A DNA stretch of 64,000 nucleotides. It comes from a virus. Where the stretch lies: positions 1 through 64,000 of IMG/VR virus record IMGVR_UViG_3300027736_000029, one strand, 5' to 3'. Made by a program: the position numbers and the translations under genes. This document shows, in pieces, positions 3,109 through 62,881 of the stretch. Under the pieces are notes generated by a model. That model saw only the letters and a list, made by a program, of their open reading frames with translations. It ran no database searches and was not told the origin of the DNA. How positions within the stretch are numbered: position 1 is the stretch's first letter; the number at the start of each line of letters is the position of its first letter.

Positions 3109-3139
3109 AAAAAACCCCCCACATTACATGGAGGGTTTT
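3109..3139. terminator. intrinsic terminator (CCCCCAC...GAGGG family)
   Basis: GC stem flanked by A/T runs; related copies at 6741, 15035 and 31796. Confidence 0.6.
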
Positions 3140-7003: not shown

Positions 7004-8752
7004 CTAATAAAAAGTCTTCACATTCATGTATTTTGATAAATCGTATTTGTCAATTATCTGTTTGAAGATTTGTCGTCTATATCCTACACCTAATATGTTT
7101 TTTTTATTAATAAAACTATAACCAAATCCTGAATCACCACTTGTTCCAACAACTTTATAATAGTTTTGATTATGAAGAGTTGTTGGGTATAATGTGGCAG
7201 TGAACAAATATCTATGACCAACCTTGGGACCATATCCAAATTTACCTAATTCTTTTTCATTACGACCCGCCCATTTTATATCTTTTAGTCCAAGTTCATC
7301 AACTAACGCCTTATGTAAATATAAATTCATTCTATCTAAAGACATATAAGCAAGTGGAGTAGTTGTGTCTTCACTGAACTTAATTATGTCTCCGTCATAA
7401 GCAATTTTAATTATATTTTCAATACCCATTACTTTAACCATTGTTTCAAATTGGTTAGGGTCTTTTATTAATTGTCTGATGTTTTCAATTTTGGATTGTT
7501 TGTCTTCATTAACAAATTTAAAATCAATTTCTATTGGTCGTTTCCCGTGTTTCTTTTCCGTCAGTTTCCTGTGGAGTTCCCAATCAATAATTGACTCTGT
7601 CACTTCAGTATCATCCTTCGCCATGGCATATAGTTTACTTATTTTTCTCATTGCTTGGTTTGAAACTTTATGGAATCTGTCAATTTCACTCTTAAAGAAT
7701 TGTATTGGATTGTCTCTATATTTTAAGACGTAGTTTTGGAATTTTAATGCAATCTTTTCAATCTTAACATCATCATCGTTATTATCAACAGGTGCTCCCA
7801 TTGCTCTAAGAAATTGTGTAAACGTATTTTCACTACGACTAACATAATTTTCAAATTCATTTAATTTCATATTGGAGATATTAACATAAATAATGTTTAA
7901 AAACCTTTCTACTTTATCTATATCCGACATTCCTTCAGTGTCCACACCAATACTATCAAAGATAGTATCAACGATTTCAAGATTATTATAAATCCCTTTG
8001 ATTAATTTTTCAAAAGTAAAGTTTTTAATATCTACCAAGGTTTTAAAGGTTATATTATTTTGTAAGAATTCTCTAAATTGGGACTTACTGATACCTTTAC
8101 TTCTCATGTTGGAAGCAACTTCTGTGGTTCTAACTAAATCCTCAGCACCATCGGTAAAATATATATAACGAACAAATTCATCATCAACCTCAGGGACATA
8201 AAATGATGGTAATTTATCTATTGCAGCGTATTCAGCATCCTTGCCAATTAAACCAATTGGTTTAACCTGTTTATCGTATTTGTGTTTTAATTCGTGCGCC
8301 AAAGAACCAATACTATGGTCTTTATCTCTAATAAATTCTTTATATAAATCTTGTGGTTCCCATTCAGGTGATACATAATAAACAATACTAAAGCCAGCAC
8401 TTGCCGATAGTGCAGTTCTTTTCATCATAATGTCACGGTCAAATCTAAATTGTTGCGACATACCCATTGAAGATATTTTTACGTTTCCATCAGAGGTAAG
8501 TTTTTTGTAAAAATCATCAACCTCTTGCACCTCAACCTCTAATGTGTATTCATCAAGCGTAATCTTTTTCTTGTCACCCAATACCACGTCAATATCATCT
8601 CTAAATTCATAAGATGATTCTTTATCTGTAATACTTTTTAAATTATCCGCAAATACTTCATATAATTCTTCAGCAGCATCTAAAATTGAATTAGGAACAC
8701 CTAACGCCTCATTAATTACCTCATGTTGTTCCTTGGTGACAATAATCTTCAT
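7004..8752 (-). CDS. large protein with IIVTKE/INE leader and HExxH (zincin-like) motif
   Basis: MKIIVTKEQHEVINEALG start; AHELKH motif. Confidence 0.6.
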   Translation of the reverse strand: MKIIVTKEQHEVINEALGVPNSILDAAEELYEVFADNLKSITDKESSYEFRDDIDVVLGDKKKITLDEYTLEVEVQEVDDFYKKLTSDGNVKISSMGMSQQFRFDRDIMMKRTALSASAGFSIVYYVSPEWEPQDLYKEFIRDKDHSIGSLAHELKHKYDKQVKPIGLIGKDAEYAAIDKLPSFYVPEVDDEFVRYIYFTDGAEDLVRTTEVASNMRSKGISKSQFREFLQNNITFKTLVDIKNFTFEKLIKGIYNNLEIVDTIFDSIGVDTEGMSDIDKVERFLNIIYVNISNMKLNEFENYVSRSENTFTQFLRAMGAPVDNNDDDVKIEKIALKFQNYVLKYRDNPIQFFKSEIDRFHKVSNQAMRKISKLYAMAKDDTEVTESIIDWELHRKLTEKKHGKRPIEIDFKFVNEDKQSKIENIRQLIKDPNQFETMVKVMGIENIIKIAYDGDIIKFSEDTTTPLAYMSLDRMNLYLHKALVDELGLKDIKWAGRNEKELGKFGYGPKVGHRYLFTATLYPTTLHNQNYYKVVGTSGDSGFGYSFINKKNILGVGYRRQIFKQIIDKYDLSKYMNVKTFY

Positions 8753-8765
8753 ACTATTAAATAGT

Positions 8766-9011
8766 TTAATCTTCCAAATCAAGATTAGCTTCGTTTAAAA
8801 TCTTTCTCATTTCTTCCCTGATTTTCACGCACACTTTGTATTCTTCATTAGATGCCTCATAATTTCCAAACAAACTAACATCGTTCCTTTCAACAGAACG
8901 TAAAACTTGGTCAAGGTCCCACATGGCAATTTTCCATTTTGACCCATCAAGTGCGTTTCTTGCTTCAATAGATTCCTCAATTGAATCAAATTCTAATATT
9001 ATCTTTCCCAT
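8766..9011 (-). CDS. hypothetical phage protein
   Basis: ORF track; TAACTTTG promoter upstream. Confidence 0.7.
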   Translation of the reverse strand: MGKIILEFDSIEESIEARNALDGSKWKIAMWDLDQVLRSVERNDVSLFGNYEASNEEYKVCVKIREEMRKILNEANLDLED

Positions 9012-16937: not shown

Positions 16938-17383
16938 ATTTTATTAACCGAGTCTATTAAAGATTTTTTTAATGCTGCGGAGAATGATGACTTTTCAAAT
17001 GGTAAGTTTTCATCTTGTAATTCAATAAAGGTTGATTTAACGTCAACTTTACCTTCACCCACTCCGATGTATTCTTTATTATTAATAATTATTTTAGTAG
17101 TGACAATCGTAATCTTTCTTTTCATTTCAAAAGGACCAATGGCAATCCCTGTTGTTGGTGCCTCAATACTTAAAACTATAACAGAAACACTATCCCCATT
17201 TTCACAGATTGAATATTTTTCGGATATTACTTCTTCGGTAATTTGTTTAACACCAAGTGTAAATCTTTTGGGACTAACACCTTCAATGTTTGCACGACTT
17301 TCAACGTGCTTAACAGAATAACAGTTTTGTGCATAAGTTAACGATGCTAAAAACATCACGGGAATTAATAATAGTTTTCTCAT
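16934..17383 (-). CDS. secreted hypothetical protein
   Basis: Sec signal ending TYA|Q; C-terminus FEKSSFSAALKKSL resembles that of the CsgG-like gene. Confidence 0.65.
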   Translation of the reverse strand: MRKLLLIPVMFLASLTYAQNCYSVKHVESRANIEGVSPKRFTLGVKQITEEVISEKYSICENGDSVSVIVLSIEAPTTGIAIGPFEMKRKITIVTTKIIINNKEYIGVGEGKVDVKSTFIELQDENLPFEKSSFSAALKKSLIDSVNKI

Positions 17384-17967
17384 TTTATTTTATATTTTGT
17401 ATAATCAGTTGATAATGGTTTTTCGTTCTTGAAATAATATACTTCAATAGTTTTACCGTACTTAATTGTCTTATAATATGCATCAGGTATTGTTGCACCT
17501 GTTAGTAACACAATTGATTTTGAGGAATACACACATCTAATCTCAACAACAACCTTTTGTATCTTTGCTAAGTCTCTTTCTCTTACTTCTAACAACCTCC
17601 AAGTAGTTCTGTTAAGGTTCTCTTGTTGTAATGAACAATTAAGGTATGTGAAGGTCTTAAATAACATTTCACCTGTGCAGTTAAAATCTGCTGCGGGAGC
17701 CAAATGTCCTTTGTCATATGGATTGTTTACATAGTCCTTATCATCAGATGTTAATATTGAATCACAAACATAAAAGTCCATACCCTTTCTTGGTGCAGTT
17801 CCATTTGGACATTGAACCGTGTATCTAATAAATTTAGGTTGTTGTAATTTCTCTGAATATACTATCTCAAACATGTCAGTCTTGACATAAATTGAATCTC
17901 TTAATGGTTTTTGTCCGTAAACAAATAATGGTAAAATAAATCCTAATGTTAATAATAGTTTTTTCAT
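17380..17967 (-). CDS. secreted DNA/RNA non-specific endonuclease (NucA/EndoG-like)
   Basis: Signal peptide; YDKGHLAPAAD, TF.Y.N, NRTTWRLLE, IP..YYK. Confidence 0.88.
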   Translation of the reverse strand: MKKLLLTLGFILPLFVYGQKPLRDSIYVKTDMFEIVYSEKLQQPKFIRYTVQCPNGTAPRKGMDFYVCDSILTSDDKDYVNNPYDKGHLAPAADFNCTGEMLFKTFTYLNCSLQQENLNRTTWRLLEVRERDLAKIQKVVVEIRCVYSSKSIVLLTGATIPDAYYKTIKYGKTIEVYYFKNEKPLSTDYTKYKIK

Positions 17968-17968: not shown

Positions 17969-19483
17969 TTATAATAATGCTTTAGCTCCAAGTAATACTT
18001 GGTAATTTATAGTGGTACTTTTTATTTGTTGAACCCCACTGAAGCTCAAGTTAAATTTAAATTTATTTGTTATTCTATAATCAAATGCGGTAAACGGAAC
18101 TAACAACCAACCTGACTTGTACCATAAACCTTCGTAGTAATAAACAAAAGGTGAATAGACCACGACCATCATAGTTGTGTTGGTTATTTTCTTACTTACT
18201 TTAAATGTTCCAACCCCACCACCAAGAGCCGATAAACTTTGGAATCTTGACTCACCCAACTTACCTGTTGTAAAATTAACACCAAGTGTTGATGTAACCG
18301 CCTTGTACTTATAAGAAGTCATTAACGATGTTGTATTAAATAAATCTCTTTCAAAGTTTAACATCGATGAGTTTGCAACTATACCAGTAAAGTTTTTAAT
18401 TTTTTTACCCATGAATAAAGTTAAACTTGAATTATTAATACTTGTAGTATAATTAAGTAATCCGCCCTTAACTACTGTGTTATTGGTATTACTTTTGACA
18501 ACACTCATGTTCATTCTAAATTGTTGTTTTTCACCTGCAGTTGCACTATTAATTACAACTATATCACCATTCAATACAATTCCACCTTGTTTTGCATTCG
18601 CAACCTTTTCCTTCGTACTTGAAGAACTTCTTGCATTATCTGCAGTTTGATTTTGTTGTTTTTCCTCAGGAGTCTGTGGGTTATTACTTTGCCCACTACC
18701 CTGAGGATTTGAACCGTTACCACCTACAGTCGACCCAGTTTGTTGTCCCCCTACAGTCGACCCAGTTTGTTGTCCCCCTACAGTCGACCCAGTCTGTTGA
18801 CCTCCTCCTTGAGTTGTAGTATTTGTATTTCCTGTGTTTCCTCCTGATGTTTGTGACGTTTCTCCATTTCCTTGAGTTTGTCCTCCACCGTTTGGATTAG
18901 TATTTCCGACTGTTTGGTTTGGTTGATTTGTTTGAGTTGCTCCAACAGTTCCATTATTTCCCTCGTTATTTTTCCCATTTACTTGATTTTGATTGTTAAT
19001 AGTTTGACTACCCTGACCATTAGTGGTAGGATTATTAGTTGATACGTTGTTATTCTTTTTGTTGTCCTTTGAAGCAGATTTTTCTTTTGCCTCAACAATT
19101 CCACCGACACTTGTTCCTCCAATCGAACTTATATCGTTTAACGCTGACATTACATTGGTTAATACTGCAATGTTATTTTGAGTTATTAACACATTCATAT
19201 TTGTGTTTTGGGCTAAACCGACACCACTACATGGTCCATCGGGATTTTTTGAATTAACTTGATTAATCCATTGTTCAAATTCACCTGTTTGTAATTGTTG
19301 TTGAGTAAAACTTTGAGTTGACCCATTGTATGTTAAAAACACACTACCTGATGGATTGTCGATGTAAATTTGTTTTTGTTTAAAGGTACAGGGGTCCGTA
19401 AATTTATACGAAAACCCCTGTCCTAAAACCATTATTGTTGTGAACAGAAAACTTAATGTAATAAAAATTTTCTTTAAATTCAT
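17969..19483 (-). CDS. secreted/outer-membrane protein with N/Q/G/T-rich linker and C-terminal beta-barrel-like domain
   Basis: Signal peptide; low-complexity middle with QQTGSTVGG x3; amphipathic beta-strands ending YQVLLGAKALL. Confidence 0.65.
   Translation of the reverse strand: MNLKKIFITLSFLFTTIMVLGQGFSYKFTDPCTFKQKQIYIDNPSGSVFLTYNGSTQSFTQQQLQTGEFEQWINQVNSKNPDGPCSGVGLAQNTNMNVLITQNNIAVLTNVMSALNDISSIGGTSVGGIVEAKEKSASKDNKKNNNVSTNNPTTNGQGSQTINNQNQVNGKNNEGNNGTVGATQTNQPNQTVGNTNPNGGGQTQGNGETSQTSGGNTGNTNTTTQGGGQQTGSTVGGQQTGSTVGGQQTGSTVGGNGSNPQGSGQSNNPQTPEEKQQNQTADNARSSSSTKEKVANAKQGGIVLNGDIVVINSATAGEKQQFRMNMSVVKSNTNNTVVKGGLLNYTTSINNSSLTLFMGKKIKNFTGIVANSSMLNFERDLFNTTSLMTSYKYKAVTSTLGVNFTTGKLGESRFQSLSALGGGVGTFKVSKKITNTTMMVVVYSPFVYYYEGLWYKSGWLLVPFTAFDYRITNKFKFNLSFSGVQQIKSTTINYQVLLGAKALL
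18723..18803. repeat. 3 x 27-bp tandem repeat (QQTGSTVGG)
   Basis: CCTACAGTCGACCCAGTTTGTTGTCCC twice plus one near-identical copy. Confidence 0.95.
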
Positions 19484-20947: not shown

Positions 20948-22867
20948 TTATTGTACTACTATTTTTGTTGCGATGTTCTTGTCAACTCTTTTTAACATTG
21001 CCACGTAAACTCCTGGTGATAAGTTACCTAAATCAACCATATATGAATATTCTCCTTTTGGTACTGAACTGTCCAAAACAACTTGATATTCTCTACCCAT
21101 TAAATCTTTAATTGAAAGTTTAACTGGACCATATTCTTTAACTTTAAAAGTAATTGCTGTCACATCATCAGTTGGATTTGGTGATACCATTATTTCATCG
21201 TTACCTGTTAAATCACCACCCATAGACATTTTATATACTTGGATAATTCCATTTGTTGGTGTGATTTCTAAATCTTTACATTGATTGTTTCCTGCAAATT
21301 TGTTTGTTGTCCATAAGGGACTAACTGTCCATTCTGTCTGTGGTTTTTTAGCGAGAAATTGTAAAGTTACAACCTCATCACCATCAACAAGTGGTTTAGA
21401 GTGGTTATTTACATCGAACCCACCCCAATCAATTTGATTGTCGTTTGTGTTTAAGTATGACACCCAACTTGAAGTTGCCGATTTTGTTTCAACACCTTTA
21501 AACTCAAGTAATGTATCGTTGTATTTTAACCCAAACTGTAATGAACCTAGTTTATCCCCGTTAGTTAAAACCTTAACAGGTACATTAACTAAGTTACCTT
21601 CTTGTACTGTTAATCTTGGTACGTTAACTTCAATAGTTGTTGTTGGAAAATCGTATTTAACTCTACTATCAATTACGTTATAAATTTGATTTTCAACACC
21701 TGGTTGAGGTGTAATTAACACTTCTATTGGAGTTACACGAGCCATTTTATAACCTGTTCCATTCGCATCACCTGGTACTAAAACATAGTAAGTAACTGAG
21801 TCAGGTTGTCCCGCAACAATATCAAACGTAAAGTTAGTTGCTCCTGCAATTGTTGATGTATAGTTAGTAGATGAGTTATTGATTGTATTGTATTGAGCCA
21901 CAGTAAAGAATTTAACATCTTTTACACTGTTAGGCCATGCAGAGAACCTACCTGAAATTCTACCAAATGTACCCCAAGCATCTGAGATAGTTAAGTTATT
22001 ATCGCCGTTAACATCAGCAGCGTAGAAATTAAAACCTGTTGGTGTTTGTGTACCTAATACATAGTCCTGTACTTTTTGTGCATCAGCTGTGGATATTACA
22101 TTACCAACACTCATAGTATCACCTTGTACTTTAATTCTTACAAAGTAACCTGTAGTATCAATTGACACGTCTTTGAATGCAAACTTACCTTGTTTATTTG
22201 TAACTTGACTTGTCACTTGAACCCATGAACCACTTGGTTTAAGTTTCTTCTCCAAAGCAACTGTAAGGTTTTTAGCTCCTGAACCAGTCACGTTGGTAAA
22301 AGTACCTTTGAATGACATTGTTTGAGGAGCAATAACACCACCATAGTTTTGTAGAGTTAATGTATTGTCTGTACCATCTTGTTTAGCAGCGATTGCTGGA
22401 TATGTTGATACGGTACCAAAAGTCATGTTCGCAATTGATGTAAGTGATGCAAATCCTGTGACGTGACGTAACTTCAATCTAATCATTGGACCTGAAGATA
22501 TTTCAAATGTGGACAAACTACCCGTATAGGTCATAGTAATTGTTGCATGACCTGCGGATTGATTTACACTATACTTCAGATTTTGAGCAAAAGATGTGTT
22601 CAAAGATGTTATGGTATCAATACCTGAGAATGCTGAGTTATCGTAGAAAACTCTAAATTGGAATGCAGTAATTTTTGTTGAGGTATTATTGTAAAAACAT
22701 AAATCTACATTTGTAAAACCTTGAACAACGGTTCCTGCCAAATACGAAGTGTCCAAGTTAATGTAAACACCCGAAGCGGACGGTGTTGGACAAGTTGTAG
22801 TTTGCCCAAAACCAAAAATGGTTAATAACGAGAACGTTAGGGTAAGAAGAATTTTTTTCATTAGCAT
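20948..22867 (-). CDS. T9SS-sorted scaffold: cohesin + Ig-like + dockerin-like + cohesin + type A CTD
   Basis: Signal peptide; ITAFQFRVFYD and LGSLQFGLKYN cohesin motifs; AADVNGDNNLTISD; SPNP...LSPGVY...TKIVVQ C-terminal domain. Confidence 0.82.
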   Translation of the reverse strand: MLMKKILLTLTFSLLTIFGFGQTTTCPTPSASGVYINLDTSYLAGTVVQGFTNVDLCFYNNTSTKITAFQFRVFYDNSAFSGIDTITSLNTSFAQNLKYSVNQSAGHATITMTYTGSLSTFEISSGPMIRLKLRHVTGFASLTSIANMTFGTVSTYPAIAAKQDGTDNTLTLQNYGGVIAPQTMSFKGTFTNVTGSGAKNLTVALEKKLKPSGSWVQVTSQVTNKQGKFAFKDVSIDTTGYFVRIKVQGDTMSVGNVISTADAQKVQDYVLGTQTPTGFNFYAADVNGDNNLTISDAWGTFGRISGRFSAWPNSVKDVKFFTVAQYNTINNSSTNYTSTIAGATNFTFDIVAGQPDSVTYYVLVPGDANGTGYKMARVTPIEVLITPQPGVENQIYNVIDSRVKYDFPTTTIEVNVPRLTVQEGNLVNVPVKVLTNGDKLGSLQFGLKYNDTLLEFKGVETKSATSSWVSYLNTNDNQIDWGGFDVNNHSKPLVDGDEVVTLQFLAKKPQTEWTVSPLWTTNKFAGNNQCKDLEITPTNGIIQVYKMSMGGDLTGNDEIMVSPNPTDDVTAITFKVKEYGPVKLSIKDLMGREYQVVLDSSVPKGEYSYMVDLGNLSPGVYVAMLKRVDKNIATKIVVQ

Positions 22868-31336: not shown

Positions 31337-31762
31337 TTATTTTAGCGTTCTGTTTATTTCTTTTTGAATATCTTTTTCTTTCATGGTCTGTCTCTTGTCG
31401 TGTAGTTTTTTACCACGAGCAAGTACGATGTCAACCTTGAAGGTGTTTTTAACTTGGTAAATTTTGTATGGGATAATACTTAAACCTTTATCCAAACTCT
31501 TTTGAAGTTTAACTAACTCACGTTTTCTAAGTAGTAACTTACGGTCTCTTTTAATATTATCATTACCAATACCTGAGATGGATACGTTTTTCATGAATAA
31601 CTCTCCGTCTTGGAACATACAATAAGAATCAACAAAAGATAACTTACCATCACGAATGAATTTAACCTCAACACCAGTCAAGACCATACCCGCTTGATAC
31701 GTGTCCAAGAACTCGTATTCATGCTTTGCTCTCCTGTTTACTATGTTGAAACCCTCTTTCAT
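31337..31762 (-). CDS. smpB: SsrA-binding protein SmpB
   Basis: NRRAKHEY, AGMVLTGVEVK, RDRKLLL, GKKLHDKR. Confidence 0.93.
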   Translation of the reverse strand: MKEGFNIVNRRAKHEYEFLDTYQAGMVLTGVEVKFIRDGKLSFVDSYCMFQDGELFMKNVSISGIGNDNIKRDRKLLLRKRELVKLQKSLDKGLSIIPYKIYQVKNTFKVDIVLARGKKLHDKRQTMKEKDIQKEINRTLK

Positions 31763-31828
31763 GGGAACAAAGATAATATAAATTTTGATATAAACAAAAA
31801 TCCCCCACATTTCTGTGAGGGATTATTA

Positions 31829-32401
31829 TTACCATGTTCTACATGCCCAATATCTTGGTTTCCATCTTGGACCAGGAGTATCACAATTGTGTCTTGCCCT
31901 AAAGTTCTTTCTTCTTTCAGGATTATTCTTCTTAATCCTCATTATTTTACCTTTGGCCGATGTTCCACCAAAACCAAAGTTTACCTTAACAACCTTACCT
32001 TTGTCGTTTTTAACATATACTTTGGACTTTTTAACGTCACCTTGCATTATTTTACCCAACTGAACTTTTCTTCCCTGATATTCAGCTTCGGTTATTAAAT
32101 CGCCGATAATAAAATTGGTTTCTTCTACCGAACCATATTCATCTTCATATAAAGTTTCATTTTTGGGTGCAATACCCTTTTTCTTCATATTGATTGCAAT
32201 TGCAGCTTGTTGAGCAGGGCTTGAAGCTTCGTTTGTTTCCACATCTTCAGATTCATTCTTAACACAATTTGGATATCTTTTTCCAAACATTGTTTTCATT
32301 CCTTTTTTCTTATAACCACTCCAACATTTTTCTGTTAGTTGTTGTTTTGAATCACCCTCAATTATGATTTTTAATTGTTGTTCGGTTATTATTATTTCCA
32401 T
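31829..32401 (-). CDS. modular phage protein with IITE leader (C-terminal DUF6321-like module)
   Basis: KCWSGY..PNCVK; AEYQGRKV...NFRARHNC...YWAC..W. Confidence 0.7.
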   Translation of the reverse strand: MEIIITEQQLKIIIEGDSKQQLTEKCWSGYKKKGMKTMFGKRYPNCVKNESEDVETNEASSPAQQAAIAINMKKKGIAPKNETLYEDEYGSVEETNFIIGDLITEAEYQGRKVQLGKIMQGDVKKSKVYVKNDKGKVVKVNFGFGGTSAKGKIMRIKKNNPERRKNFRARHNCDTPGPRWKPRYWACRTW

Positions 32402-32423
32402 AATAATAAATATCCTGTAAAAC

Positions 32424-32456
32424 AAAAAACCCCGAACAATTTCTTGTCGGGGTTCT
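32424..32456 (-). terminator. intrinsic terminator of the large ncRNA
   Basis: GAACCCCGACAA...TTGTTCGGGGTTTTTT on minus strand. Confidence 0.75.
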
Positions 32457-33290
32457 TGGCTTCAGGTTGAGAATACACCTTCTTACGAGAGACTTTACAG
32501 GAGATTATTGTTTACTCCGATTTCCACTTCCTTTTGAGAAGTACCTCTCAGTCACGGTCAATTAGATTAACCAATCCTTAAGTCGTAATCTACTCTGTTT
32601 TTACTCGTTGCTCTTCAAGGTTGCCACCCTGATTATGTCTTGCGGACTTAGAGAACTTTCACAACAATCGTATTGGGCTTGGGACCCTTTACGGCCATGA
32701 ACATCTCATGACTATGTAGTGACCTGTCAATCACGACTGGCGAACGCTTTTCCTTGTATCTTTTAGTTGTTAAACATCAATTAACAAAGTTTGCGGTTGT
32801 GGATGATGAAAGTAGCGGTTCGCCGACCAAGCCATGTCATCTTTTGAACGACACGATACTTAACTACTCCCTAAGATATCCCTATCTTCATACTTCAAGT
32901 TTGTTTCATCTTAAATCCCTTGGTAGAGACTTTAAGAAGGAATCACCAGCACCACCTGTACGACCTCTTACCTTTCGGTTTTAAACCCACTTTAATATTG
33001 AATCACGCAATAGTATGGTCGGATAACCATGTGTCTTACAATAATTCTACGAGTTATTCTTATTGGTGTTCCCACCTCAACCAAACGACCCACATCGCTT
33101 GGTCATTAAACCAGTTTCCCTACAGTGTCACCCTCGGTACTCAAGGTCTAACGATATCTCGCTTGTCTACTCGAGCTCCCTTTCGGAAGCCGCAAACCAC
33201 TTAACCAAATGATTCACTTTATACCACTTTCATGGTTTATTTTATGGACTATAGACCGCCCAATATCTTTAATTCAAAGAACGTTTTCTT
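32457..33290 (-). ncRNA. large (~830 nt) structured ncRNA, GOLLD-like
   Basis: No credible ORF, higher GC, several GNRA-capped hairpins on minus strand, own TACCTTTG promoter (~33301-33308) and terminator, tRNA directly upstream. Confidence 0.65.
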
Positions 33291-33355
33291 AATTGTTTCA
33301 CAAAGGTAAGATAAAGTTTTCAATTTACCAAACTTTTTGTGAAGTTTTTTTTTTG

Positions 33356-33428
33356 TTGCGAGAGAGGGAATCGAACCCCCGACCTCAAGGTTATGAGCCT
33401 TGCGAGCTACCGCTGCTACCATCTCGCG
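33356..33428 (-). tRNA. tRNA-Met (CAT), initiator-like, CCA not encoded
   Basis: Cloverleaf; CTCATAA loop; GGTTCGATTC T-arm; C1:A72 mismatch. Confidence 0.93.
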
Positions 33429-33459
33429 ATATATCTTAAGTAAAAGAACTTTCAAAGTA

Positions 33460-33555
33460 ATGTCCCACAAAGATAAAACTATTTTTTGAAATAATCAAAT
33501 GTCTGTGGGACATTTTTTTTGAGACTCTCATCTCAATTGTTTCACAAAGTTAAAA
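33460..33555 (-). promoter_or_regulatory. tandem Bacteroidota-type promoters upstream of the tRNA
   Basis: TATCTTTG (~33468-33475) and TAACTTTG (~33545-33552) on minus strand. Confidence 0.55.
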
Positions 33556-33738
33556 CAAAATTCTCATTTTGTCAAATATATATTATGAAACTTTTTTTGG
33601 GGATGTCCGTCATTTCTGACTGAAACAATAAATATACCCAACAATTTCAAAAGTACTATATTTTTATGGATAAGTCAAATTTTTTCTATAAAAAAGTTTA
33701 AATTGACATATCTTCCACTATTATTTGTATTTATATGT

Positions 33739-34086
33739 ATGAAAGTTAGAATCAACGACAATATTTTTAATGTAAAAACTTTAATAGATAAGAAATCTCA
33801 ATCTATTGGGATGATGGGTAAAACATTTGGAGCTACGTTCGAAGGTCTATTATTTTTAATGGGTGGAGACAAACAATCTTTTTGGATGAAGAATTGTATT
33901 ATACCATTAGATATTCTCATCATTAGAAATAATGTCATTGTAAACATACATTATAATTGTCCTCCTTGTAACGGTAATGAATGTCCAAGTTATGGTGGAA
34001 ATGGAAATATTGTATTGGAAGTTGAAGGTGGAAGTTGTGAATACTTGGAGATTGAACCAGGTGATACAGTTGAATACTTACTTTGA
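33739..34086 (+). CDS. DUF192 family protein
   Basis: GMM, GLLF, FWMKNCIIPLDI, VLEV.GG. Confidence 0.88.
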   Translation: MKVRINDNIFNVKTLIDKKSQSIGMMGKTFGATFEGLLFLMGGDKQSFWMKNCIIPLDILIIRNNVIVNIHYNCPPCNGNECPSYGGNGNIVLEVEGGSCEYLEIEPGDTVEYLL

Positions 34087-35475
34087 TTCTGCGATTTTTT
34101 CTTTAAGTTTTCTTTCAAACTCATTTGCAATCATCTTTGTAAACTTAACTGAAGGTGAATCATCACTTTCAGAGTCATATCTATTTTGAGATTGAGGTGG
34201 TCTTTTACTTCTACCCAAATAATTTAAACCAGAAATGTTTGTAATACATTTGTGTCCACCTGAATTTGATTGAATTAAATCCCATGCATTGATTCCAATT
34301 TTATCTAACATATTTCTATGTTCTTCAGTTAAATCTTTGAATGGTGTTTCCATCATATCTTGAATATGGTCCAAAACTTTTTCACCACCTTCTATAGTGG
34401 TAAACTTATCACCATATAATGCTTCAAAGTCTTTAAATGTGAATCCAATACTTTCAGGACCCACAGAAGTTTCACTAACCCACTTAATAGTTGATAGAGG
34501 AATTGTTCTTTGTTTTAGTTGGTCTTCCCATTTACTTATAACTTCTTGAGCGATTTCACCTAAGTTAACACCTTTTAATTCTCTTTCTTTTTTGAATGGA
34601 TTACAAGATGCTTGAACCAATCCCATTGGCCATGCCATAATTAAAAAGTCCGCTTCAGGATTGTTTCTAAATGGTGTGTATCTATCATAAGAACCAGGTT
34701 TAAACATATTACCACCACCATATTGAAAAATGATACTATCACTAACTCTTGGATAGTTCTTCATATTTTGTTTATAATCTTCAGCGTTTTTCTGTAGTTC
34801 TTCAGGTTTAGCTGCGTTTGTTTTTTTCATCCAATCTTTAATACTATTTAAAATAGACATTAAAGATGGTTCTGAATCCATAACTAACGATTCTAAAAAC
34901 CCTGGTTTATTTTTAAACGCCAACAATAACTTATTAATAACCAAACCTAACAACATTTTATTCTTTTGAAGTGGTTTGTCTTTATCTAATCGATAAATGT
35001 AATTAACCACCTCATCAGGTGTAATGTCATATTTAGCATAATCTGCAGAATCAACAGTATTGATTAATAAGATGTCTGATGATGGAAACAAATCTCTTGG
35101 TGATACTACTTGTGATATTGTTTCTACGTTTGAACGAGCACCTCTGAATTGTTTTGAAGTACCTTTTTCAACTCCCACTTGTTTGTCGTGGTGGTCCGTA
35201 TGAATTACGAACATTGGCTTACCGTGAGCAAAATCTACAAGAACTGGCATCACATCTCCCTGTGCGTCGTTCTTTTTAACTGAGAATTCTTTGTCACCGT
35301 ATTGGATTATGTGAGTACCTACAACTTCAATACCATTATTTTCAAGGTATCTTTTCATTGCAATTGCAGTTGTTACTCCATCCAAATCTTGGTGAAAGTA
35401 TATTTCAGCTTTAGGATATCTTTTTCTTAAAGCTGAAATATCTCTTATTCCAGTTTCTTTAATTAACATTTTCAT
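34078..35475 (-). CDS. DHH-family phosphoesterase-like protein
   Basis: HQDLDG, VDF, TDHH and GGH motifs. Confidence 0.75.
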   Translation of the reverse strand: MKMLIKETGIRDISALRKRYPKAEIYFHQDLDGVTTAIAMKRYLENNGIEVVGTHIIQYGDKEFSVKKNDAQGDVMPVLVDFAHGKPMFVIHTDHHDKQVGVEKGTSKQFRGARSNVETISQVVSPRDLFPSSDILLINTVDSADYAKYDITPDEVVNYIYRLDKDKPLQKNKMLLGLVINKLLLAFKNKPGFLESLVMDSEPSLMSILNSIKDWMKKTNAAKPEELQKNAEDYKQNMKNYPRVSDSIIFQYGGGNMFKPGSYDRYTPFRNNPEADFLIMAWPMGLVQASCNPFKKERELKGVNLGEIAQEVISKWEDQLKQRTIPLSTIKWVSETSVGPESIGFTFKDFEALYGDKFTTIEGGEKVLDHIQDMMETPFKDLTEEHRNMLDKIGINAWDLIQSNSGGHKCITNISGLNYLGRSKRPPQSQNRYDSESDDSPSVKFTKMIANEFERKLKEKIAESK

Positions 35476-42861: not shown

Positions 42862-43174
42862 TCTTATATGTTTTTAATAATTGTTTTATAAATAATTTTA
42901 ATTCGTTTAATTGTTCTTCTTTATAATAAATAACCAAAGTTTTCTTATCGACACAATCTTTAAATAAATATAAATAAAATGGTTGTTTGGTTTTATATAT
43001 TTTACTTTTGATTTTAATTTCATCCATTTCAAACTCCATCCAACTATCACTAAAAACTGTAGTAAATGCACGACCATCCAAGAACTTTATAAAGTCATCA
43101 GGAACCTCAAGTTCCAACGTTGAGAATAATTTTCCATCTTCAAGTTTTTCAATATATTCTGGTTTACTTACCAT
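42839..43174 (-). CDS. hypothetical protein
   Basis: ORF track. Confidence 0.65.
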   Translation of the reverse strand: MVSKPEYIEKLEDGKLFSTLELEVPDDFIKFLDGRAFTTVFSDSWMEFEMDEIKIKSKIYKTKQPFYLYLFKDCVDKKTLVIYYKEEQLNELKLFIKQLLKTYKNGTINNK

Positions 43175-44820
43175 ATGTTCTCAATTTTGTCTTTATCCCA
43201 GACCAAACGGCCATCATCCCTCCAATAAGAAGTAGACTCAAGTTCCAAACCAGACTTGTGAACCTTTTTAATTTTGACTGTATCGAATTTTTCATCTTTA
43301 ACATAATATAACATACGTCCATCCAATTTAAATAGAACGTCATCCCATTCTTCAGTTAATTTCTTATTAAACCTACCCAAAGATTGAACTCGGTCAACAT
43401 AAATAGTCTTGGAAACTAACGCCTGACTTAATTTATATTCAACGGTGGCTCTAACATCTGAATCAACCCCACCCTGACGCAAAGACACAATCATTGAACC
43501 ACACTTACCAATATATGTTTTAACACAATTGGATTGAATTGCACTCTCCTGATTATAGCTCTTACTGTTATCCAACAACACAGGATAATAAACTTCACCA
43601 CCATGTTCAATTGGTTCACTTATGACCCGATAACTATAGTCAGGGTACTTACGATAGTAGGTACCTTCTCTATATGACTGTATTTTATCTACCCAATCCA
43701 AATGTTCACCCCTAAAATCACTTTTATCGTCATCAGATGACATCCATTTAATATTTGGTTCATACAACTTCAAATCACAATAAAATCTCATATGGTCATA
43801 GAATGTATGAGCGTCCAATGTACCATGTATAACAACATGTCTAAACAATTTAAACACACGTTTCAATTCTTCATTGGTGACAAATTCTTTAAAGTCTACA
43901 GGTAACGGATAATAATTAATGTTTGAATTCAAACATCCCAAAATTAACTCATAGTCTTGATTAACCCAATCGTCATTAAACATATTACGAGCCAAGGTAA
44001 GCATTGGAAGATTCAAACCTTCACAATTGTGTAAGGCTTTCTTAATCTGTTTACCCGATAACTCATTGCGTACCATAACGGCATCAACCATTCTATTATC
44101 AGTTTTCTTAAGAATTTTTTTAATCTCAGGTCCGAACCACTCATTCGTGTAAATATGGAAATTGTTAGGAAACTTAACCCCTCGTTTATTTAAATAAAAC
44201 TTAAATAACCTTTGATTATTGGTTAACACTCCAAAATTATCAATGGGGTCAATCGTTTGAATAAAAACTTCCAAAGCTTCTTGAGTACAATCCACATCAA
44301 GATTAGAATCCACACGTCTTATACAATTCCTAATTGACAAACTCAAATTATTCAAAGGTTCGCCAATAAAGTAATTTCTATTGATTCGTTTTTTTGATTT
44401 TCTTTTTAAGTGGTAGTTATCAATACCTCCAACATACACATCACCAGTCTTGGTGTTCACACTAATAAATTCAACGTGTTTAATTGTCTTGAACCAAACA
44501 ACACCCGGTCTTCTGTGTTTATAACCCCAGAATAATTTAATAGCAACTTTATCCCCATCTCTTTCAACTACAATAGTTACATTATTTCTAGTAACCGAAT
44601 ACAATTGGTCAGCAAATCGGGTAACAAACTCTTCCTCTGTTTTATTGGTTTTTTTATAAATAAATAATGGATGTTTTTTTGTTGGTTCAGGACCATCTTC
44701 AAGTTCAAAATTGAGGGTTTGACTTTGAATCATTCTCTTTACATAAGGGAACTCACTATAAGATTCGTGCTCAATAGTTTCATAGCTCACGAACTCTTTT
44801 TTGAATAACACCTCCTTCAT
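43168..44820 (-). CDS. PcfJ-like domain protein
   Basis: C-terminal ES..QSNCVKTY...SLR...ATVE...QSLGRFN. Confidence 0.7.
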   Translation of the reverse strand: MKEVLFKKEFVSYETIEHESYSEFPYVKRMIQSQTLNFELEDGPEPTKKHPLFIYKKTNKTEEEFVTRFADQLYSVTRNNVTIVVERDGDKVAIKLFWGYKHRRPGVVWFKTIKHVEFISVNTKTGDVYVGGIDNYHLKRKSKKRINRNYFIGEPLNNLSLSIRNCIRRVDSNLDVDCTQEALEVFIQTIDPIDNFGVLTNNQRLFKFYLNKRGVKFPNNFHIYTNEWFGPEIKKILKKTDNRMVDAVMVRNELSGKQIKKALHNCEGLNLPMLTLARNMFNDDWVNQDYELILGCLNSNINYYPLPVDFKEFVTNEELKRVFKLFRHVVIHGTLDAHTFYDHMRFYCDLKLYEPNIKWMSSDDDKSDFRGEHLDWVDKIQSYREGTYYRKYPDYSYRVISEPIEHGGEVYYPVLLDNSKSYNQESAIQSNCVKTYIGKCGSMIVSLRQGGVDSDVRATVEYKLSQALVSKTIYVDRVQSLGRFNKKLTEEWDDVLFKLDGRMLYYVKDEKFDTVKIKKVHKSGLELESTSYWRDDGRLVWDKDKIENIW

Positions 44821-51069: not shown

Positions 51070-53022
51070 TTATTGAGTTTTTCTGTTGTATGAAATTAAA
51101 TTTTTCATTTTTTGTAAATCCTCGTTGATAATTTTTGTTGCTTTAGCTTCAGTAGATTCTAATGTATTAAGTATCTTAGTTGCCTTGTTGATTGAATTTG
51201 ATTTGTCAGCTCCTTGTTGTTTGGATTTTAAAGACCCTTTTGTTTTACCATTACCTTCAACTTCAATCGTTTCTTGTGGTTGTCTTTTATAAGATGCTTT
51301 CATTTGTTCAGCACCATATAAGTTTTCGTCAAAATTTTTCTTAAATCTATCACCAACTTTCTCACTTCTTTTTGAAACATTTCCTAATGCTTTACCATCT
51401 TTACCCGTAACCGCATTTCCTGTTGTGGAGTCTCCTTTTAATTGTTTACCAATTCTTTCATCTTCTGGTTTAATCTCGTCATAAACAAGATTTGTCATAC
51501 CAGGATAAGAGAACGCTTCAATATATTCTTCAACAGCATCAGATGGTTGGTATTTCATCTCATTATGTTCTTTCTCCATATCGTAATTACTTTGAGGGAA
51601 ATCATCTGGATTCTCATCATATCCCTTACCACCCATGTACATATCCTTCATGTAATCTTTCATTTTCTTAACAACTTCTTTACTATAGTTGTCATTTTCT
51701 TTTTTACTTTCACCTTGAGCCTTTTCAGTCTTCTTTAACCCTTGAGGTTTATTAACACTAAAACTGTTTTTTTCTGCTGTGTCCTTAACAATCTCTTCTT
51801 TTACAATTTTTTCAATCATATCAATTAACTCATTCTCACTTAAAGATAAAGTATTTCTACTTTCATTAAGACCACCTAAAGTCAAAGCCATGTTTACTTG
51901 TTTTAATAACTTAGAATCTGCAGCAGACAATTTCTTATCACCTTTAGCCTTTGTCATTAAATCTTTTTTAATTGCGTTTAATTTGGCTTTAGGTATTTTT
52001 TTACCTTCAGGTATTCCTAAAGCTTTATGTAATCCCCCTTTTGTCATGTTAGCCTTTTGAATAAATTTGTCTTCAGATTCATTCATTTTTTTCTCACCTT
52101 TAACGTGATATGTTTTACCGTCAACCTCAAAAGTATCTTCACCGTCTTCTATTGCCTGAGCTCTTGCTCCTGAAAAAGCATTACCTTCTTCCATTTCTTC
52201 ATCTTTCATGTCTTTTTGGTCTCTGTTAAATCTACTTTGACCAGGTTCAGGTACTTGCCAACCAACTATATCATTAACGTATTCATAACCCGCATCCCAT
52301 AAACTTGGATTTTCTTTTCTGTCTTTTTCACGAGCAACTTCAGGGTCTTCTTTTTTACCAAACATTTTCTTGAAAATGTTTTCCTCAACTTCACTCTTGT
52401 TAGATTTTTTACCTTCAAATTTATGTGTTTCTTCTAATCCTTTAACCATTCTAACTCTAAATGGTTTTCCACCAAATTTTTGTTGATATTGATTAAAGTA
52501 TTTTTCACCATCATTTGGTGCAAACCATCTTTGGTTTTTACCATGTTTTGACATTAATGATGGAAAATCTTCAAATTCTTCCTCATCATAATCAAAATCA
52601 AAATCACCAGTATGTTCTCTATCAGATTGGTCAAACCAACCGTGTTCATCATCAAATGAACCAAACATTTTATTTTTGATAGTATTTTTGATTTTATTGT
52701 CAGCTAAACCTCTACCAACATAAGTGGGTTCATTTTTTGATAATTCTTCAGCTTCTTCAAAATCAGAATCATCACTATAGTAAAATTCTTCAACTTCTTC
52801 TTTATGAGATTTAGCGTCTCTTAATTTTTTGAAGTCAGCAGCAGTAATCTTACCCTTAGGTTCTGCAACATCAATTTTAGATTGTCCACCTTTAAGGTCT
52901 TCATTCATTTCAATTTCTTTCCACTCACCTTTAGTTTCCATTATTTTTCTAACTTTAGAGTCAATTTCTTCACTAAGAATTTTTGAAACTAATTTATCGA
53001 TATCATTTTGAAAGTCTTTCAT
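51070..53022 (-). CDS. large charged modular protein (putative processed head polyprotein)
   Basis: Short modules separated by xxE sites; GGLHKALGIPEGKKIP module; TATTTATA upstream. Confidence 0.6.
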   Translation of the reverse strand: MKDFQNDIDKLVSKILSEEIDSKVRKIMETKGEWKEIEMNEDLKGGQSKIDVAEPKGKITAADFKKLRDAKSHKEEVEEFYYSDDSDFEEAEELSKNEPTYVGRGLADNKIKNTIKNKMFGSFDDEHGWFDQSDREHTGDFDFDYDEEEFEDFPSLMSKHGKNQRWFAPNDGEKYFNQYQQKFGGKPFRVRMVKGLEETHKFEGKKSNKSEVEENIFKKMFGKKEDPEVAREKDRKENPSLWDAGYEYVNDIVGWQVPEPGQSRFNRDQKDMKDEEMEEGNAFSGARAQAIEDGEDTFEVDGKTYHVKGEKKMNESEDKFIQKANMTKGGLHKALGIPEGKKIPKAKLNAIKKDLMTKAKGDKKLSAADSKLLKQVNMALTLGGLNESRNTLSLSENELIDMIEKIVKEEIVKDTAEKNSFSVNKPQGLKKTEKAQGESKKENDNYSKEVVKKMKDYMKDMYMGGKGYDENPDDFPQSNYDMEKEHNEMKYQPSDAVEEYIEAFSYPGMTNLVYDEIKPEDERIGKQLKGDSTTGNAVTGKDGKALGNVSKRSEKVGDRFKKNFDENLYGAEQMKASYKRQPQETIEVEGNGKTKGSLKSKQQGADKSNSINKATKILNTLESTEAKATKIINEDLQKMKNLISYNRKTQ

Positions 53023-58367: not shown

Positions 58368-59792
58368 CTAAAAACCTTCAAGGATAGAATCTTTAGGTAT
58401 TGAAAAATATTGTTTATTTAAACGTTTTTTTCTTTTAATCCACCAATCAGATTTAGAAACATATAGTAAATATTCAAAAACATCGGTAAATGGTTTTTTT
58501 GTCATAGTAGTCCAAAAAGTTTTAAATTCATCTGTTAAATTATTTTCAATATCTTCAATAGGTACTGTCCTTAATGCACCTGGTGATGAATTTCTATTAA
58601 CATCGTATGTGGTATATCCAAAATAATCTGTGGATATTTTTGTTGGGTTACCTGTAAAATAAAATGATTCTCCAGGGTTTGGATTTATTAAATAAACAAA
58701 TCCATATTTTTTTAATGATTCATGTCTAAAATAAAATCTTACTTCTTGTCGATGAGTAATCACTTTATAATTATTTATATCAGAAAATATTTCATTCGAT
58801 TGTAAAAGATTATTTTTAATATCATTAATATAGGTGGTAACGGTATTAATCTTACTTTGATTATTTTTCTTAAGCTCACCCAAATGCGGTAATCCATTGT
58901 AAGATAAAAGTGATATTAAATTATCTTCAGTTACAATCGTATTTTCATTAAAAATAAGTTCCATTCTTTGTTTAAAATTTTCTAAACTTTCATTTTTACA
59001 AGATAAAAATATACTTTCAGTTGGAACTGAACCTAAGTAAGTTTTTTTAAAAATATCATTATATGTGAAAACATCGTCATACCAAATATCACTCAATAAG
59101 ACCTCATCATTGTTATATTTTATAGAATAATCTTGATTATTAGGTTTTTCACAAATGAAATGACATAAAACTAAATCTTGGTCAACATTTTCAAAGAAAT
59201 TCTCAATATCTATAATTGATTTTAAAGTGACTGTTTTTTTAAAAATATCCCTAAATCCTTCAAACACTTTAGTAGGATTTTGAAATATTGTTTTAGGTAG
59301 GATATAATATACATGACTATTTTTTGGTGAAATATCTATAGTATGTAATATAAAAAAAACCGCTTCTTCCTTTATTGCCTTTATTGAATACGTATTTTTT
59401 AATTTTTTAATGACTTTGGTATGGGTTTTGGATGATTCGTTTGGTGTCCTAAAAGGTGGATTACCAAAATAAAAAATAGGATTATTATTTTTAGAGAAAT
59501 CAACATCATAAAAATTTTTAAATGATAATGTTAAATTTTTATCTCTCAACTCATCTATAACCCATTGATATTCCTCATCAATTTCAAAACCATATATATG
59601 ATTAAAATTGTAATTGTTTTTAACGTATCTTAAGATATTACCACTCCCAAAACTCGGTTCAACAAAATCATAATTGCTATAATCAAAATCAGCATTTAAT
59701 CCAAACAACTTTTCTATAGTTTCAATAGGTGTATTATATTGACCTAAAAGTTGTTTTTTATTTGCGGTATTCTTAGATACAGAATTTTTCAT
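58368..59792 (-). CDS. N6-adenine DNA methyltransferase (gamma class)
   Basis: LGQYNTP, EPSFGSG and GNPPF motifs. Confidence 0.85.
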   Translation of the reverse strand: MKNSVSKNTANKKQLLGQYNTPIETIEKLFGLNADFDYSNYDFVEPSFGSGNILRYVKNNYNFNHIYGFEIDEEYQWVIDELRDKNLTLSFKNFYDVDFSKNNNPIFYFGNPPFRTPNESSKTHTKVIKKLKNTYSIKAIKEEAVFFILHTIDISPKNSHVYYILPKTIFQNPTKVFEGFRDIFKKTVTLKSIIDIENFFENVDQDLVLCHFICEKPNNQDYSIKYNNDEVLLSDIWYDDVFTYNDIFKKTYLGSVPTESIFLSCKNESLENFKQRMELIFNENTIVTEDNLISLLSYNGLPHLGELKKNNQSKINTVTTYINDIKNNLLQSNEIFSDINNYKVITHRQEVRFYFRHESLKKYGFVYLINPNPGESFYFTGNPTKISTDYFGYTTYDVNRNSSPGALRTVPIEDIENNLTDEFKTFWTTMTKKPFTDVFEYLLYVSKSDWWIKRKKRLNKQYFSIPKDSILEGF

Positions 59793-60501: not shown

Positions 60502-62880
60502 TTATTGTGAGACTTTTGAAATGTTTTCAGTTTTTGTAATTCTAACCACATTGTCGGCCCAATTTGAAATTAAAGGATTGTGACTAATCACAAAGATTTT
60601 CTCAAAGTAGTCCTTCAACTTCATGAAGAAGTCCCCAACCATTTCCAAGTTTTCATTAGAAACCTTACCCCAAGTCTCATCGTAAACCGATATGTTAGGT
60701 TTTGGAAGTGAACATACCTTTGATAGTACCGCTCTAATTGCCAACGCTCCGATTGTCTTTTCATATCCTGAACCAGCTGTCATTGGTTTTTCAATACCTG
60801 TACCGTTATCAATCATGATAAAGTCAACCTCGTTCTTGTCGTTAATACGAATCTCTAAGTTAAAGAAACAAGAGTCCTGAAGGAGTCTTTGTAGTTCAGA
60901 GTTAATCAACGGCATCATGGTCTTCATAATCACCTTTGTAATACCGTTCTTACCAAACACCTCGACATACATCTTGTAAATCTTCTCACGTTCAAACTCT
61001 TCGGCAATCTTTAAGATAACCCCATTATTCTTTTCAATACGAGCATGAAGGTTTTCAATTTGATTTTGATTGGTTGATTGGATTCTTTCGTATCCACGTT
61101 TCTCGTTAATCAATTCATCAATACGTAATCCAGCCTTCACCAACTGAGCATCAATCTCGTTGTTCTTCTTAATCTTGTCTTGAACCTCTTCGTACCTCTT
61201 AAGTTTGTCTTTGGCTTGACCTAATTTCAATTCACTTGATTCCAATTGAATCTCATATTTTTCTTTGATGAGTTTGTTTCTCTCGTATTCATCAAAGTCT
61301 TTCTTAAGTTGAGTATAAGACTTTTCTTTGAAATCAAGGTCTTTCCATTGTTTGGATAACTTGTCAACCTTCTTTTCCCAATCTCCCAACTCATCAATCT
61401 TTTTCTTTGTGAGCGCCGCTTCCATCAATTTGATTCCGCAGTGTTCACATTGAATGCCATCTCCAAACTTCTTAACCAATTGTTCAATCTCTTCAACTTT
61501 GTTCTGAGCAAGGATGAGTTCACCGTTTGTGGTTTTCATTCCTTCTTTAACCTCATCATGTTTGTCTTCATGATAAAAATCTTTTGGTTCCACAATCTTA
61601 ACCTCTTTGATTTGACCTCTAAGTCTTTCACAAGAACCATCAAAATCTGTGATGTCTGATTGTAGTTTAATTGGGTTTAGGACAATAAGTTCTTGGTCGA
61701 TGTCACTATACTTTGACTTCAACAAGTTGTCTTTGTAGTCCTGACCTTTCTGTAATCTCAAATCAACATCCTTAACTTTCACATTAGATTCTTCAATCTC
61801 GGTTTTAAATTTTTGGATTTGTTCTGATGAACTGTCGTTATCCTGTTTCAAAGATTCTGTGTTGTAAACATTTGACATCATTCCTTTTGAGAACTCAGAA
61901 TAGATTTCTTTACCTGTCTCTTCTTTCTTTTTCAAGAACTCAAGACCCAAGAATCTGCTTAACACCTGACCACGAGCTGTTGGTTTTGCATCCAATAAAT
62001 CTTCAAGGTTTGATGCTGTTGTTACGATTGTCATCAAGAAGTCATCCATACTACCGATGGATGTTTTCATGAAGTTCTCGGTCTCTCTACGTTGTTCACC
62101 AGTAAAGTTCTGAAGTTGTCCATCAGCTAGTTTCTTGAAGAACTCCAACTCGGTCTTAACATTCCATTCACCTGTTTTGGATTTCTTTCTTTCAATCTTA
62201 CGAGCAATGATATACTCCTCACCGTCAATGATGATGTCACCCTTAACAACTACCGTGTTTTTATCGGTAAATCGATTGAAGATTTCTTCCGCCTTCTGTG
62301 TTTTTGTTGTTGTGTTGAAGAACAAGAACAATAATAAGTCTACCGTTAATACGGTCTTACCTCCAAAGTTTGGTGGGTCTGATTCAACCACGGTAATACC
62401 ATTACATTGGTCAAAGTCAATAACTTGGTTCTCACCATAAGATAAGAAGTTACTGAACTCAATTTTCTTGATGTGCCATTTCTTAAATGCAGTAACTTCA
62501 ACATCGTTGGCTGTCAATCTATTTTCAACCGCAGAATCAATTCCCATTACTTGTTCGTAATATTGTTCTTGACCTTTGGATTCCAACATTGACTTGATAA
62601 GTTCTCTTTGGTAGTTCTTATCCATGATGTTAACTGATACATCAATCGTTTGTTGTGTGTCCTCTGTGGTCTTAACCTTTGTGATGACATTGATATTGGT
62701 TGAGTTATATTTCTTTTGGAAATATTGCTTAACCGATTTGATTCTTTCTTGTGTGAAGTTCTCTGGTGTGTCTTCCCATACCACTTGGATATAAGGATTC
62801 TCCAATGATTCTACGTCTAACTTTGTTGACATTGTTTTGTAATTAAATTCTGGTTTCGGATTGAATAAATCCCATTTCAT
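60502..62880 (-). CDS. SbcC/Rad50/gp46-like recombination ATPase
   Basis: NFLSYG, NFGGKT, CEHC zinc hook, SGYEK, YDE and ISH motifs. Confidence 0.9.
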   Translation of the reverse strand: MKWDLFNPKPEFNYKTMSTKLDVESLENPYIQVVWEDTPENFTQERIKSVKQYFQKKYNSTNINVITKVKTTEDTQQTIDVSVNIMDKNYQRELIKSMLESKGQEQYYEQVMGIDSAVENRLTANDVEVTAFKKWHIKKIEFSNFLSYGENQVIDFDQCNGITVVESDPPNFGGKTVLTVDLLLFLFFNTTTKTQKAEEIFNRFTDKNTVVVKGDIIIDGEEYIIARKIERKKSKTGEWNVKTELEFFKKLADGQLQNFTGEQRRETENFMKTSIGSMDDFLMTIVTTASNLEDLLDAKPTARGQVLSRFLGLEFLKKKEETGKEIYSEFSKGMMSNVYNTESLKQDNDSSSEQIQKFKTEIEESNVKVKDVDLRLQKGQDYKDNLLKSKYSDIDQELIVLNPIKLQSDITDFDGSCERLRGQIKEVKIVEPKDFYHEDKHDEVKEGMKTTNGELILAQNKVEEIEQLVKKFGDGIQCEHCGIKLMEAALTKKKIDELGDWEKKVDKLSKQWKDLDFKEKSYTQLKKDFDEYERNKLIKEKYEIQLESSELKLGQAKDKLKRYEEVQDKIKKNNEIDAQLVKAGLRIDELINEKRGYERIQSTNQNQIENLHARIEKNNGVILKIAEEFEREKIYKMYVEVFGKNGITKVIMKTMMPLINSELQRLLQDSCFFNLEIRINDKNEVDFIMIDNGTGIEKPMTAGSGYEKTIGALAIRAVLSKVCSLPKPNISVYDETWGKVSNENLEMVGDFFMKLKDYFEKIFVISHNPLISNWADNVVRITKTENISKVSQ

Positions 62881-62881
62881 T

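Follow-up and report, generated by a model that had tools for sequence, protein, structure and literature searches.

GOLLD RNA has been known since 2009. In Kretsch et al. (2025, PMC12286853), the GOLLD RNA env-38 is described from cryo-EM as a protein-free D7 homo-14-mer cage, 380 Å across, in which the 5′ domains form the caps, the 3′ domains form the rings and a disordered linker (nt 497-538) lies inside. The env-38 gene is likewise placed downstream of a tRNA-Met gene, expression of GOLLD is reported to rise during phage lysis, and its function is given as unknown. The same paper states that ribosomes bind GOLLD; this statement was not counted here, as its reference number points to an unrelated paper. 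Our literature search returned no functional study of GOLLD for 2025-2026 and, with those years included, no paper linking GOLLD with SmpB.

The gene described here lies on an IMG/VR virus record of 104,266 bp with a CheckV completeness of 36%, so that it probably covers part of a phage genome a few hundred kb in size. We analyzed the first 64 kb of the record, referred to below as the window. The source is probably an uncultured large phage with a Bacteroidota host; among cellular proteins, its SmpB is closest to those of Bacteroidota. Of the ten largest window proteins tested, seven had no PHROG family at E 1e-5, indicating that the phage lineage is poorly charted, and an SbcC-like nuclease (60502-62919) is the only one of the ten to which PHROG gave a named function. 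The seven are encoded as follows:

1455-3122, 7004-8782, 17969-19483, 20948-22867, 43168-44820, 51070-53022 and 58368-59792: large ORFs without a PHROG family

The original prediction held that the largest ORF-free stretch of the window encodes a structured RNA, either GOLLD or a new large RNA, and proposed a covariance-model search against Rfam. The stretch is the largest when ORFs of at least 100 aa are considered (32426-33702, 1277 nt), and its G+C content is 41% versus 32% for the window. None of the three short ORFs that it contains (76, 94 and 73 aa) has support. Across the whole window, the Rfam scan gave two matches, one to tRNA (33428..33356) and one, on the minus strand, to GOLLD (RF02032; 324.1 bits with a cut-off of 150, E 4.8e-92, model positions 1-416 of 416, not truncated). 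A permissive search (E up to 1) of 32380-33620 added only chance-level matches to these two. A full-model GOLLD match with no competing family argues for GOLLD and against a new RNA class, so that only the first of the two predicted identities was borne out. The gene also shares with GOLLD a total length of ~800 nt, a structured 5′ domain, a virus record as its source and an adjoining tRNA gene. It is very likely that the minus-strand gene is a bona fide full-length GOLLD RNA, in identity as well as in anatomy. Its parts are listed below; the 5′ end of the unit was predicted from the promoter box and the 3′ end was placed at the terminator U-run.

32428..33294, minus strand: GOLLD RNA transcription unit, about 840-870 nt (Rfam match, homologue alignment, promoter and terminator positions)
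32872..33262, minus strand: GOLLD 5′ domain, outside the Rfam model, starting with the invariant GGGCGG..UAUAGUCC (covariation)
32464..32871, minus strand: GOLLD 3′ domain, conserved and covered by the RF02032 model (324.1 bits; covarying helices)
32749..32813, minus strand: A/U-rich variable linker within the 3′ domain (indel-rich, poorly conserved alignment columns 601-678)

A blastn search with the 5′ part (33262..32872) found matches in two uncultured 630-640-kb phages. In each of them, the matching stretch is immediately followed by a complete GOLLD 3′ domain, as called by Rfam, and tRNAs lie beside it; the window GOLLD aligns with both copies over its whole length at 74% mean column identity. 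Scanning IMG/VR for the invariant start motif GGGCGGNNTATAGTCC and filtering with an nhmmer profile yielded 47 full-length homologues, 40 of them distinct. RNAalifold predicted 196 pairs on the alignment of these 40, and 146 pairs have at least one compensatory change. Within the 5′ domain (~390 nt) there are 20 helices with 104 predicted pairs; 97.8% of cells hold standard pairs, and 75 of the 104 pairs change on both sides. In slid controls, where the 3′ partners were moved by 1-3 columns, 37-42% of cells were paired and 19-31 pairs changed on both sides. Shuffling gave the observed 5′-domain values in none of 500 trials. The 3′ domain contains a 10-bp long-range helix, a pseudoknot in the model, between 32738..32729 and 32590..32581; it covaries in the 40 sequences, as do the remaining helices of this domain. 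Covariation, which the original prediction had suggested as a check, is seen as compensatory changes in both domains among 40 distinct sequences.

It could still be argued that the stretch encodes a new class of large RNA that only resembles GOLLD, or a small protein, given that the 5′ half lies outside the Rfam model and that three overlapping ORFs of 73-94 codons are present. However, the full-model match exceeds the Rfam cut-off more than twofold, and no homologue has the 5′ half without a GOLLD 3′ half attached. The covariation, moreover, preserves base pairs and not reading frames, with indels that are not multiples of three. The Rfam match, the homologues and the covariation refute this explanation, which we consider vanishingly improbable.

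Four minus-strand hairpins had been noted as GNRA-type. All four exist and lie in covarying helices:

33190..33175, minus strand: hairpin GCUUCC-GAAA-GGGAGC, in a covarying helix
32979..32970, minus strand: hairpin ACC-GAAA-GGU, in a covarying helix
32647..32637, minus strand: hairpin GUCC-GCAA-GAC, in a covarying helix; CGCAA pentaloop in the Rfam consensus
32628..32619, minus strand: hairpin GGUG-GCAA-CC, in a covarying helix; UGGCA pentaloop in the Rfam consensus

The GNRA assignment does not hold for the last two, which have 5-nt loops in the Rfam consensus. At 32647..32637, the loop sequence is CGCAA in the window and UCGAA in the copies of the two huge phages. A GC/CG dinucleotide switch has been described for the L21a kissing loop of GOLLD by Kretsch et al. 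(PMC12286853), and we infer that the switch at 32647..32637 would be that of this intermolecular loop, which would be an indirect hint of cage assembly.

The RNA had also been predicted to have its own promoter and terminator, and candidates for both were found. On the minus strand, TACCTTTG is followed by 18 nt, GTTCTTTGA, 12 nt, the invariant GGGCGG core (from about 33261), the RNA and a terminator. These elements are as follows:

33301..33308, minus strand: TACCTTTG, putative Bacteroidota-type -7 promoter box (TAnnTTTG; homologues and Roseivirga)
33272..33282, minus strand: GUUCUUUGAAU, predicted boxA-like (Nus-factor antitermination) leader motif (conservation and Roseivirga)
32424..32452, minus strand: GOLLD intrinsic terminator, CCCCGAC..GUUCGGGG and U6 (fold; conserved in close homologues)

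The terminator hairpin (32452..32430), which precedes the U6 run, is strong (dG -18.7 kcal/mol, z -4.8). At the other end, the predicted promoter box occupies 33308..33301, and divergent GOLLD homologues likewise have a perfect TAnnTTTG ahead of their boxA-like motif. We infer that TACCTTTG would act as the GOLLD promoter. The GTTCTTTGA motif (33282..33274) is conserved in nearly all homologues, and its distance to the core is variable, which suggests that it belongs to the leader and not to the promoter. In the one Bacteroidota genome compared, that of Roseivirga, both of two identical rRNA operons carry TACCTTTG and an exact GTTCTTTGA ahead of the 16S gene, at distances of 373 and 153 nt, respectively. 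The motif also matches 8 of the 10 specified positions of the boxA consensus GYTCTTTAANA (PMC5725501), a gamma-proteobacterial consensus and thus that of another phylum than Bacteroidota. Based on the exact identity with the Roseivirga rRNA leader and the closeness to GYTCTTTAANA, we read GTTCTTTGA as a boxA-like Nus-factor antitermination signal, and Nus binding is predicted. The GOLLD leader is unstructured. A boxA-like antitermination signal fits a long, structured and untranslated RNA, and the promoter box, boxA-like leader and terminator are together consistent with expression as a stable RNA in lytic growth.

As a general phage promoter, GTTCTTTGA was rejected: only two exact copies occur in the window, the other one inside a coding frame, and the one-mismatch count equals chance. 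Separately, some loci (L054, L118, L102, L070, L011, L028, L104 and L096) have an insert of ~65 nt that separates the boxA-like motif from the GOLLD core. It consists of a small hairpin and a UGAUGA...CUGA arrangement resembling a kink-turn (C/D-box-like) element, and an A/U-rich tail, GAUAAAGAUAUU, is repeated after it.

Upstream of GOLLD, and ending 47 nt before its promoter box, is a tRNA-Met gene whose leader has the same layout as that of GOLLD:

33355..33428, minus strand: tRNA-Met (CAU) with a C1:A72 mismatch (ARAGORN and Rfam)
33441..33475, minus strand: tRNA-Met leader, consisting of TATCTTTG, 18 nt, GTTCTTTTA, 12 nt and the tRNA (direct reading)

A mismatched 1:72 pair is a hallmark of bacterial initiator tRNAs, and the tRNA-Met beside GOLLD is, by its sequence, initiator-like. 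Its anticodon stem is AGG/CCU. This pairing of genes recurs, with a same-strand tRNA-Met upstream in 44 of the 64 loci found through GOLLD. Among 29 distinct tRNA-Met genes of GOLLD loci, 23 have a 1:72 mismatch (C:A, C:T or U:U), and three G:C genes (elongator-type) lie farther from GOLLD or downstream of it. Neither a tmRNA nor any tRNA other than tRNA-Met was found in the 104-kb record, an estimated 36% of the genome.

Cellulophaga phage phi4:1 was considered as a culturable model and rejected; it was matched via tRNA-Met only, and the gene-poor stretch after its tRNA array has no GOLLD. Further upstream in the window, a second promoter-like element, TAACTTTGTGAAACAATTGAG (33553..33532, minus strand), is 17/18 identical to that of GOLLD. 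It is followed by a near-perfect hairpin of 75 nt (33524..33450, minus strand), the 3′ arm of which includes the TATCTTTG box of tRNA-Met. An Rfam search of this hairpin region (33450-33553) gave a chance-level miRNA-precursor match only.

The RNA gene had been placed between tRNA-Met and smpB. The tRNA-Met gene does adjoin GOLLD and the smpB gene is real, but smpB is not directly adjacent to GOLLD in the window, since a 198-codon ORF intervenes:

31829..32425, minus strand: ORF of 190-198 codons, likely ATG at 32401 (no Pfam family, weak PHROG matches only)
31337..31774, minus strand: phage smpB, 145 aa from MKEGVNIVN, open frame to 31810 (Pfam PF01668)

The SmpB protein matches PF01668 at E 1.8e-44 over profile positions 2-142 of 143. 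Phage copies group in a single clade of the SmpB tree (99/97), separate from the cellular SmpB of Bacteroidota. The intervening ORF has its own terminator (31824..31799), and in close relatives without it, GOLLD ends 61-74 nt before smpB. It is a lineage-specific insertion between GOLLD and smpB. In transcription order, GOLLD is preceded by a DNA methylase, a weak DHH-like protein of 465 aa, a divergent DUF192 gene and tRNA-Met, and it is followed by the 198-codon ORF, smpB and further genes without an assigned function. The DUF192 gene (plus strand) and the gene for the 465-aa protein, with its weak N-terminal DHH match (minus strand), occupy 33703-35475. Most related phages retain both beside the position of tRNA-Met/GOLLD or of smpB, whether GOLLD is present or absent, with 64-99% identity for the DHH-like protein.

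The association of GOLLD with smpB was examined in smpB loci fetched regardless of GOLLD. The query was built by aligning five phage SmpBs, and the best 80 of at least 464 IMG/VR relatives were kept. A same-strand GOLLD lies upstream of smpB in 35 of these best 80 of at least 464 loci (44%, a share that is inflated because the query was built from GOLLD-linked SmpBs and the closest relatives were sampled). The gap between the two genes is 61-115 nt in 21 of the 35, and up to 1.65 kb in the others. Ten of the 35 belong to the syntenic group of the window. About 20 of the 35 belong to a second group, group B, which has only SmpB (45-50% identity) and GOLLD in common with the window among 24 window proteins tested; these counts again refer to the best 80 of at least 464 relatives. 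In group B, no other window gene was detected within 10 kb on either side. The junction is the same in both phage groups: the U-run of the GOLLD terminator gives TTTG, followed by 19 nt, TATCTTTG, 4-6 nt and the ATG of smpB (seen in L243, L244, L248, L272, L275, L280, L285, L298 and L309). This overlap of terminator and promoter suggests that the smpB mRNA is probably leaderless and that the cassette has a common origin.

There is a serious possibility, though one that falls short of probable, that all of this reflects local gene order only, with GOLLD, tRNA-Met and smpB being independent accessory genes in a permissive hot spot. The insertion of an unrelated ORF between GOLLD and smpB in the window would agree with this. 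So would the loci found through GOLLD: among 22 distinct ones with enough flank, only 4 have smpB within 2.5 kb downstream and 18 do not. In addition, smpB occurs without GOLLD at the same syntenic place, in a third group that is syntenic with the window. In this group, DUF192 and smpB are separated by 42-583 nt, so that neither GOLLD nor the tRNA would fit, and the flanks are without tRNAs. A hidden or divergent GOLLD was sought by Rfam in seven of the smpB loci lacking one, and none was found. In contrast, independent accessory genes would hardly account for a same-strand GOLLD-smpB arrangement with an identical junction in phages that share no other gene within 10 kb. Nor would they readily account for GOLLD adjacency in 10 of 23 SmpB clusters at 90% identity (among the best 80 of at least 464 relatives), which is far above random expectation for a rare RNA. 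The link is weakened, on the other hand, by the SmpB tree, which requires at least four gains or losses of this adjacency. The GOLLD-smpB association is thus real and recurrent, but since phages with only GOLLD or only smpB exist, it is not obligatory. The GOLLD-less syntenic relatives (L252-L259, L277, L281-L283, L288, L290 and L293-L316) could serve as comparison genomes for the contribution of GOLLD.

The GOLLD-smpB pair has a tmRNA gene nearby in L286 and L291. In L106, for which no smpB was found, a tmRNA follows GOLLD at a distance of 2.3 kb. Among phage smpB loci in general, tmRNA genes were seen in L250 (9849-10255, plus strand), L251, L286 (10918-11312, minus strand) and L291. A group I intron (17283-17497, plus strand) lies beside a 25-tRNA array in L263.

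Based upon these observations and on the published cage, we propose that the locus would be an independent stable-RNA unit, with a TAnnTTTG promoter, an unstructured boxA-like leader, an ~800-nt RNA and an intrinsic terminator. Host Nus factors would be recruited by the boxA leader, allowing a long untranslated RNA to be made in full, as is the case for rRNA. By homology with env-38, the one solved member, the RNA would be expected to fold without protein and to assemble as a closed cage of 14 identical subunits, in which the 5′ domains form the caps and the 3′ domains the rings, enclosing the A/U-rich linker. During infection, the GOLLD RNA might then target the translation apparatus of the cell. 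This last step is suggested by the recurrent neighbors, namely an initiator-like tRNA-Met upstream, smpB downstream in many phages and sometimes a tmRNA or RNA ligase nearby. A translation-linked function of GOLLD is plausible on these grounds, although we put it forward tentatively. The original prediction had taken the smpB/tRNA neighborhood as a hint of such a role; that neighborhood proved recurrent, and in two unrelated phage contexts, but the smpB part of it is not obligatory. With related phages carrying GOLLD without smpB and smpB without GOLLD, a role in translation stays at the level of a suggestion.

The same neighbors can be viewed differently. GOLLD could be a counter-defence RNA, an abundant cage or decoy against RNA-targeting host defences such as anticodon nucleases, acting alongside phage tRNAs and RNA-repair enzymes. 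GOLLD does sit with phage tRNAs, and the neighbors in group B include a T4 Rnl1-like RNA ligase, an enzyme class that repairs cleaved tRNA. Its patchy, cassette-like presence between otherwise syntenic phages is, moreover, typical of accessory counter-defence genes. However, no defence or anti-defence gene was identified by Pfam or PHROG beside GOLLD in the window, and the neighbors fit a general translation island equally well. We think it unlikely that counter-defence is what GOLLD provides; the probability left over by this role and a translation-linked one goes to functions of another kind.

Returning to the translation-linked proposal, a bolder version would make GOLLD and phage SmpB a functional pair carried on one mobile cassette, in which the cage, SmpB and a tmRNA of host or phage would capture, rescue or reprogram ribosomes. 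The cassette would comprise a terminator fused with the smpB promoter, a leaderless smpB mRNA and, often, an initiator-like tRNA in front. This version is speculative and distinctly improbable; if true, it would provide the first function for GOLLD.

Another copy of GOLLD adds little by itself, but its context may help. Our additions are modest. They comprise the identity of the putative boxA with a Bacteroidota rRNA leader, the initiator-like partner tRNA, the terminator/promoter junction with smpB in non-syntenic phages, and the variants lacking either gene. An rRNA-type boxA leader would suggest a stable RNA that is made at a high level with the help of Nus factors. The leader, the tRNA-Met and the smpB junction direct experiments toward translation initiation and ribosome rescue, and Bacteroidota phages are a place to seek a tractable GOLLD system.

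In comparison with other known systems, ROOL RNA (RF03087) is similar in being a large ornate RNA of phages and prophages near tRNA islands that forms an RNA-only cage, as described in PMC12286853. It differs in its fold, an 8-mer with intertwined halves, and the stretch gave no ROOL match even at a permissive Rfam threshold. The locus resembles the tmRNA/SmpB system in that a canonical full-length SmpB is encoded downstream of GOLLD and some related loci carry a tmRNA, but GOLLD itself has no tmRNA match and the 104-kb record has no tmRNA. Like an rRNA operon leader, the GOLLD unit consists of a predicted promoter, then a single-stranded GTTCTTTGA and then a long structured untranslated RNA. 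Unlike the rRNA leader, it is without an identified boxB or boxC, and its motif lies only 12 nt before the core of the mature RNA. The closest likeness is to env-38, to which the window GOLLD was compared through the published description. The window GOLLD is an independent sequence from a Bacteroidota-type phage, and its boxA-like leader and smpB cassette are not mentioned in the available text of the env-38 paper (PMC12286853). The two RNAs nevertheless agree in size (about 0.85 kb here and 833 nt for env-38) and in having two domains, the 5′ one about 420 nt long. The A/U-rich linker (32749..32813) lies at the equivalent place, as matched by position, and in both cases the phage is from an environmental metagenome and its GOLLD gene lies just downstream of tRNA-Met.
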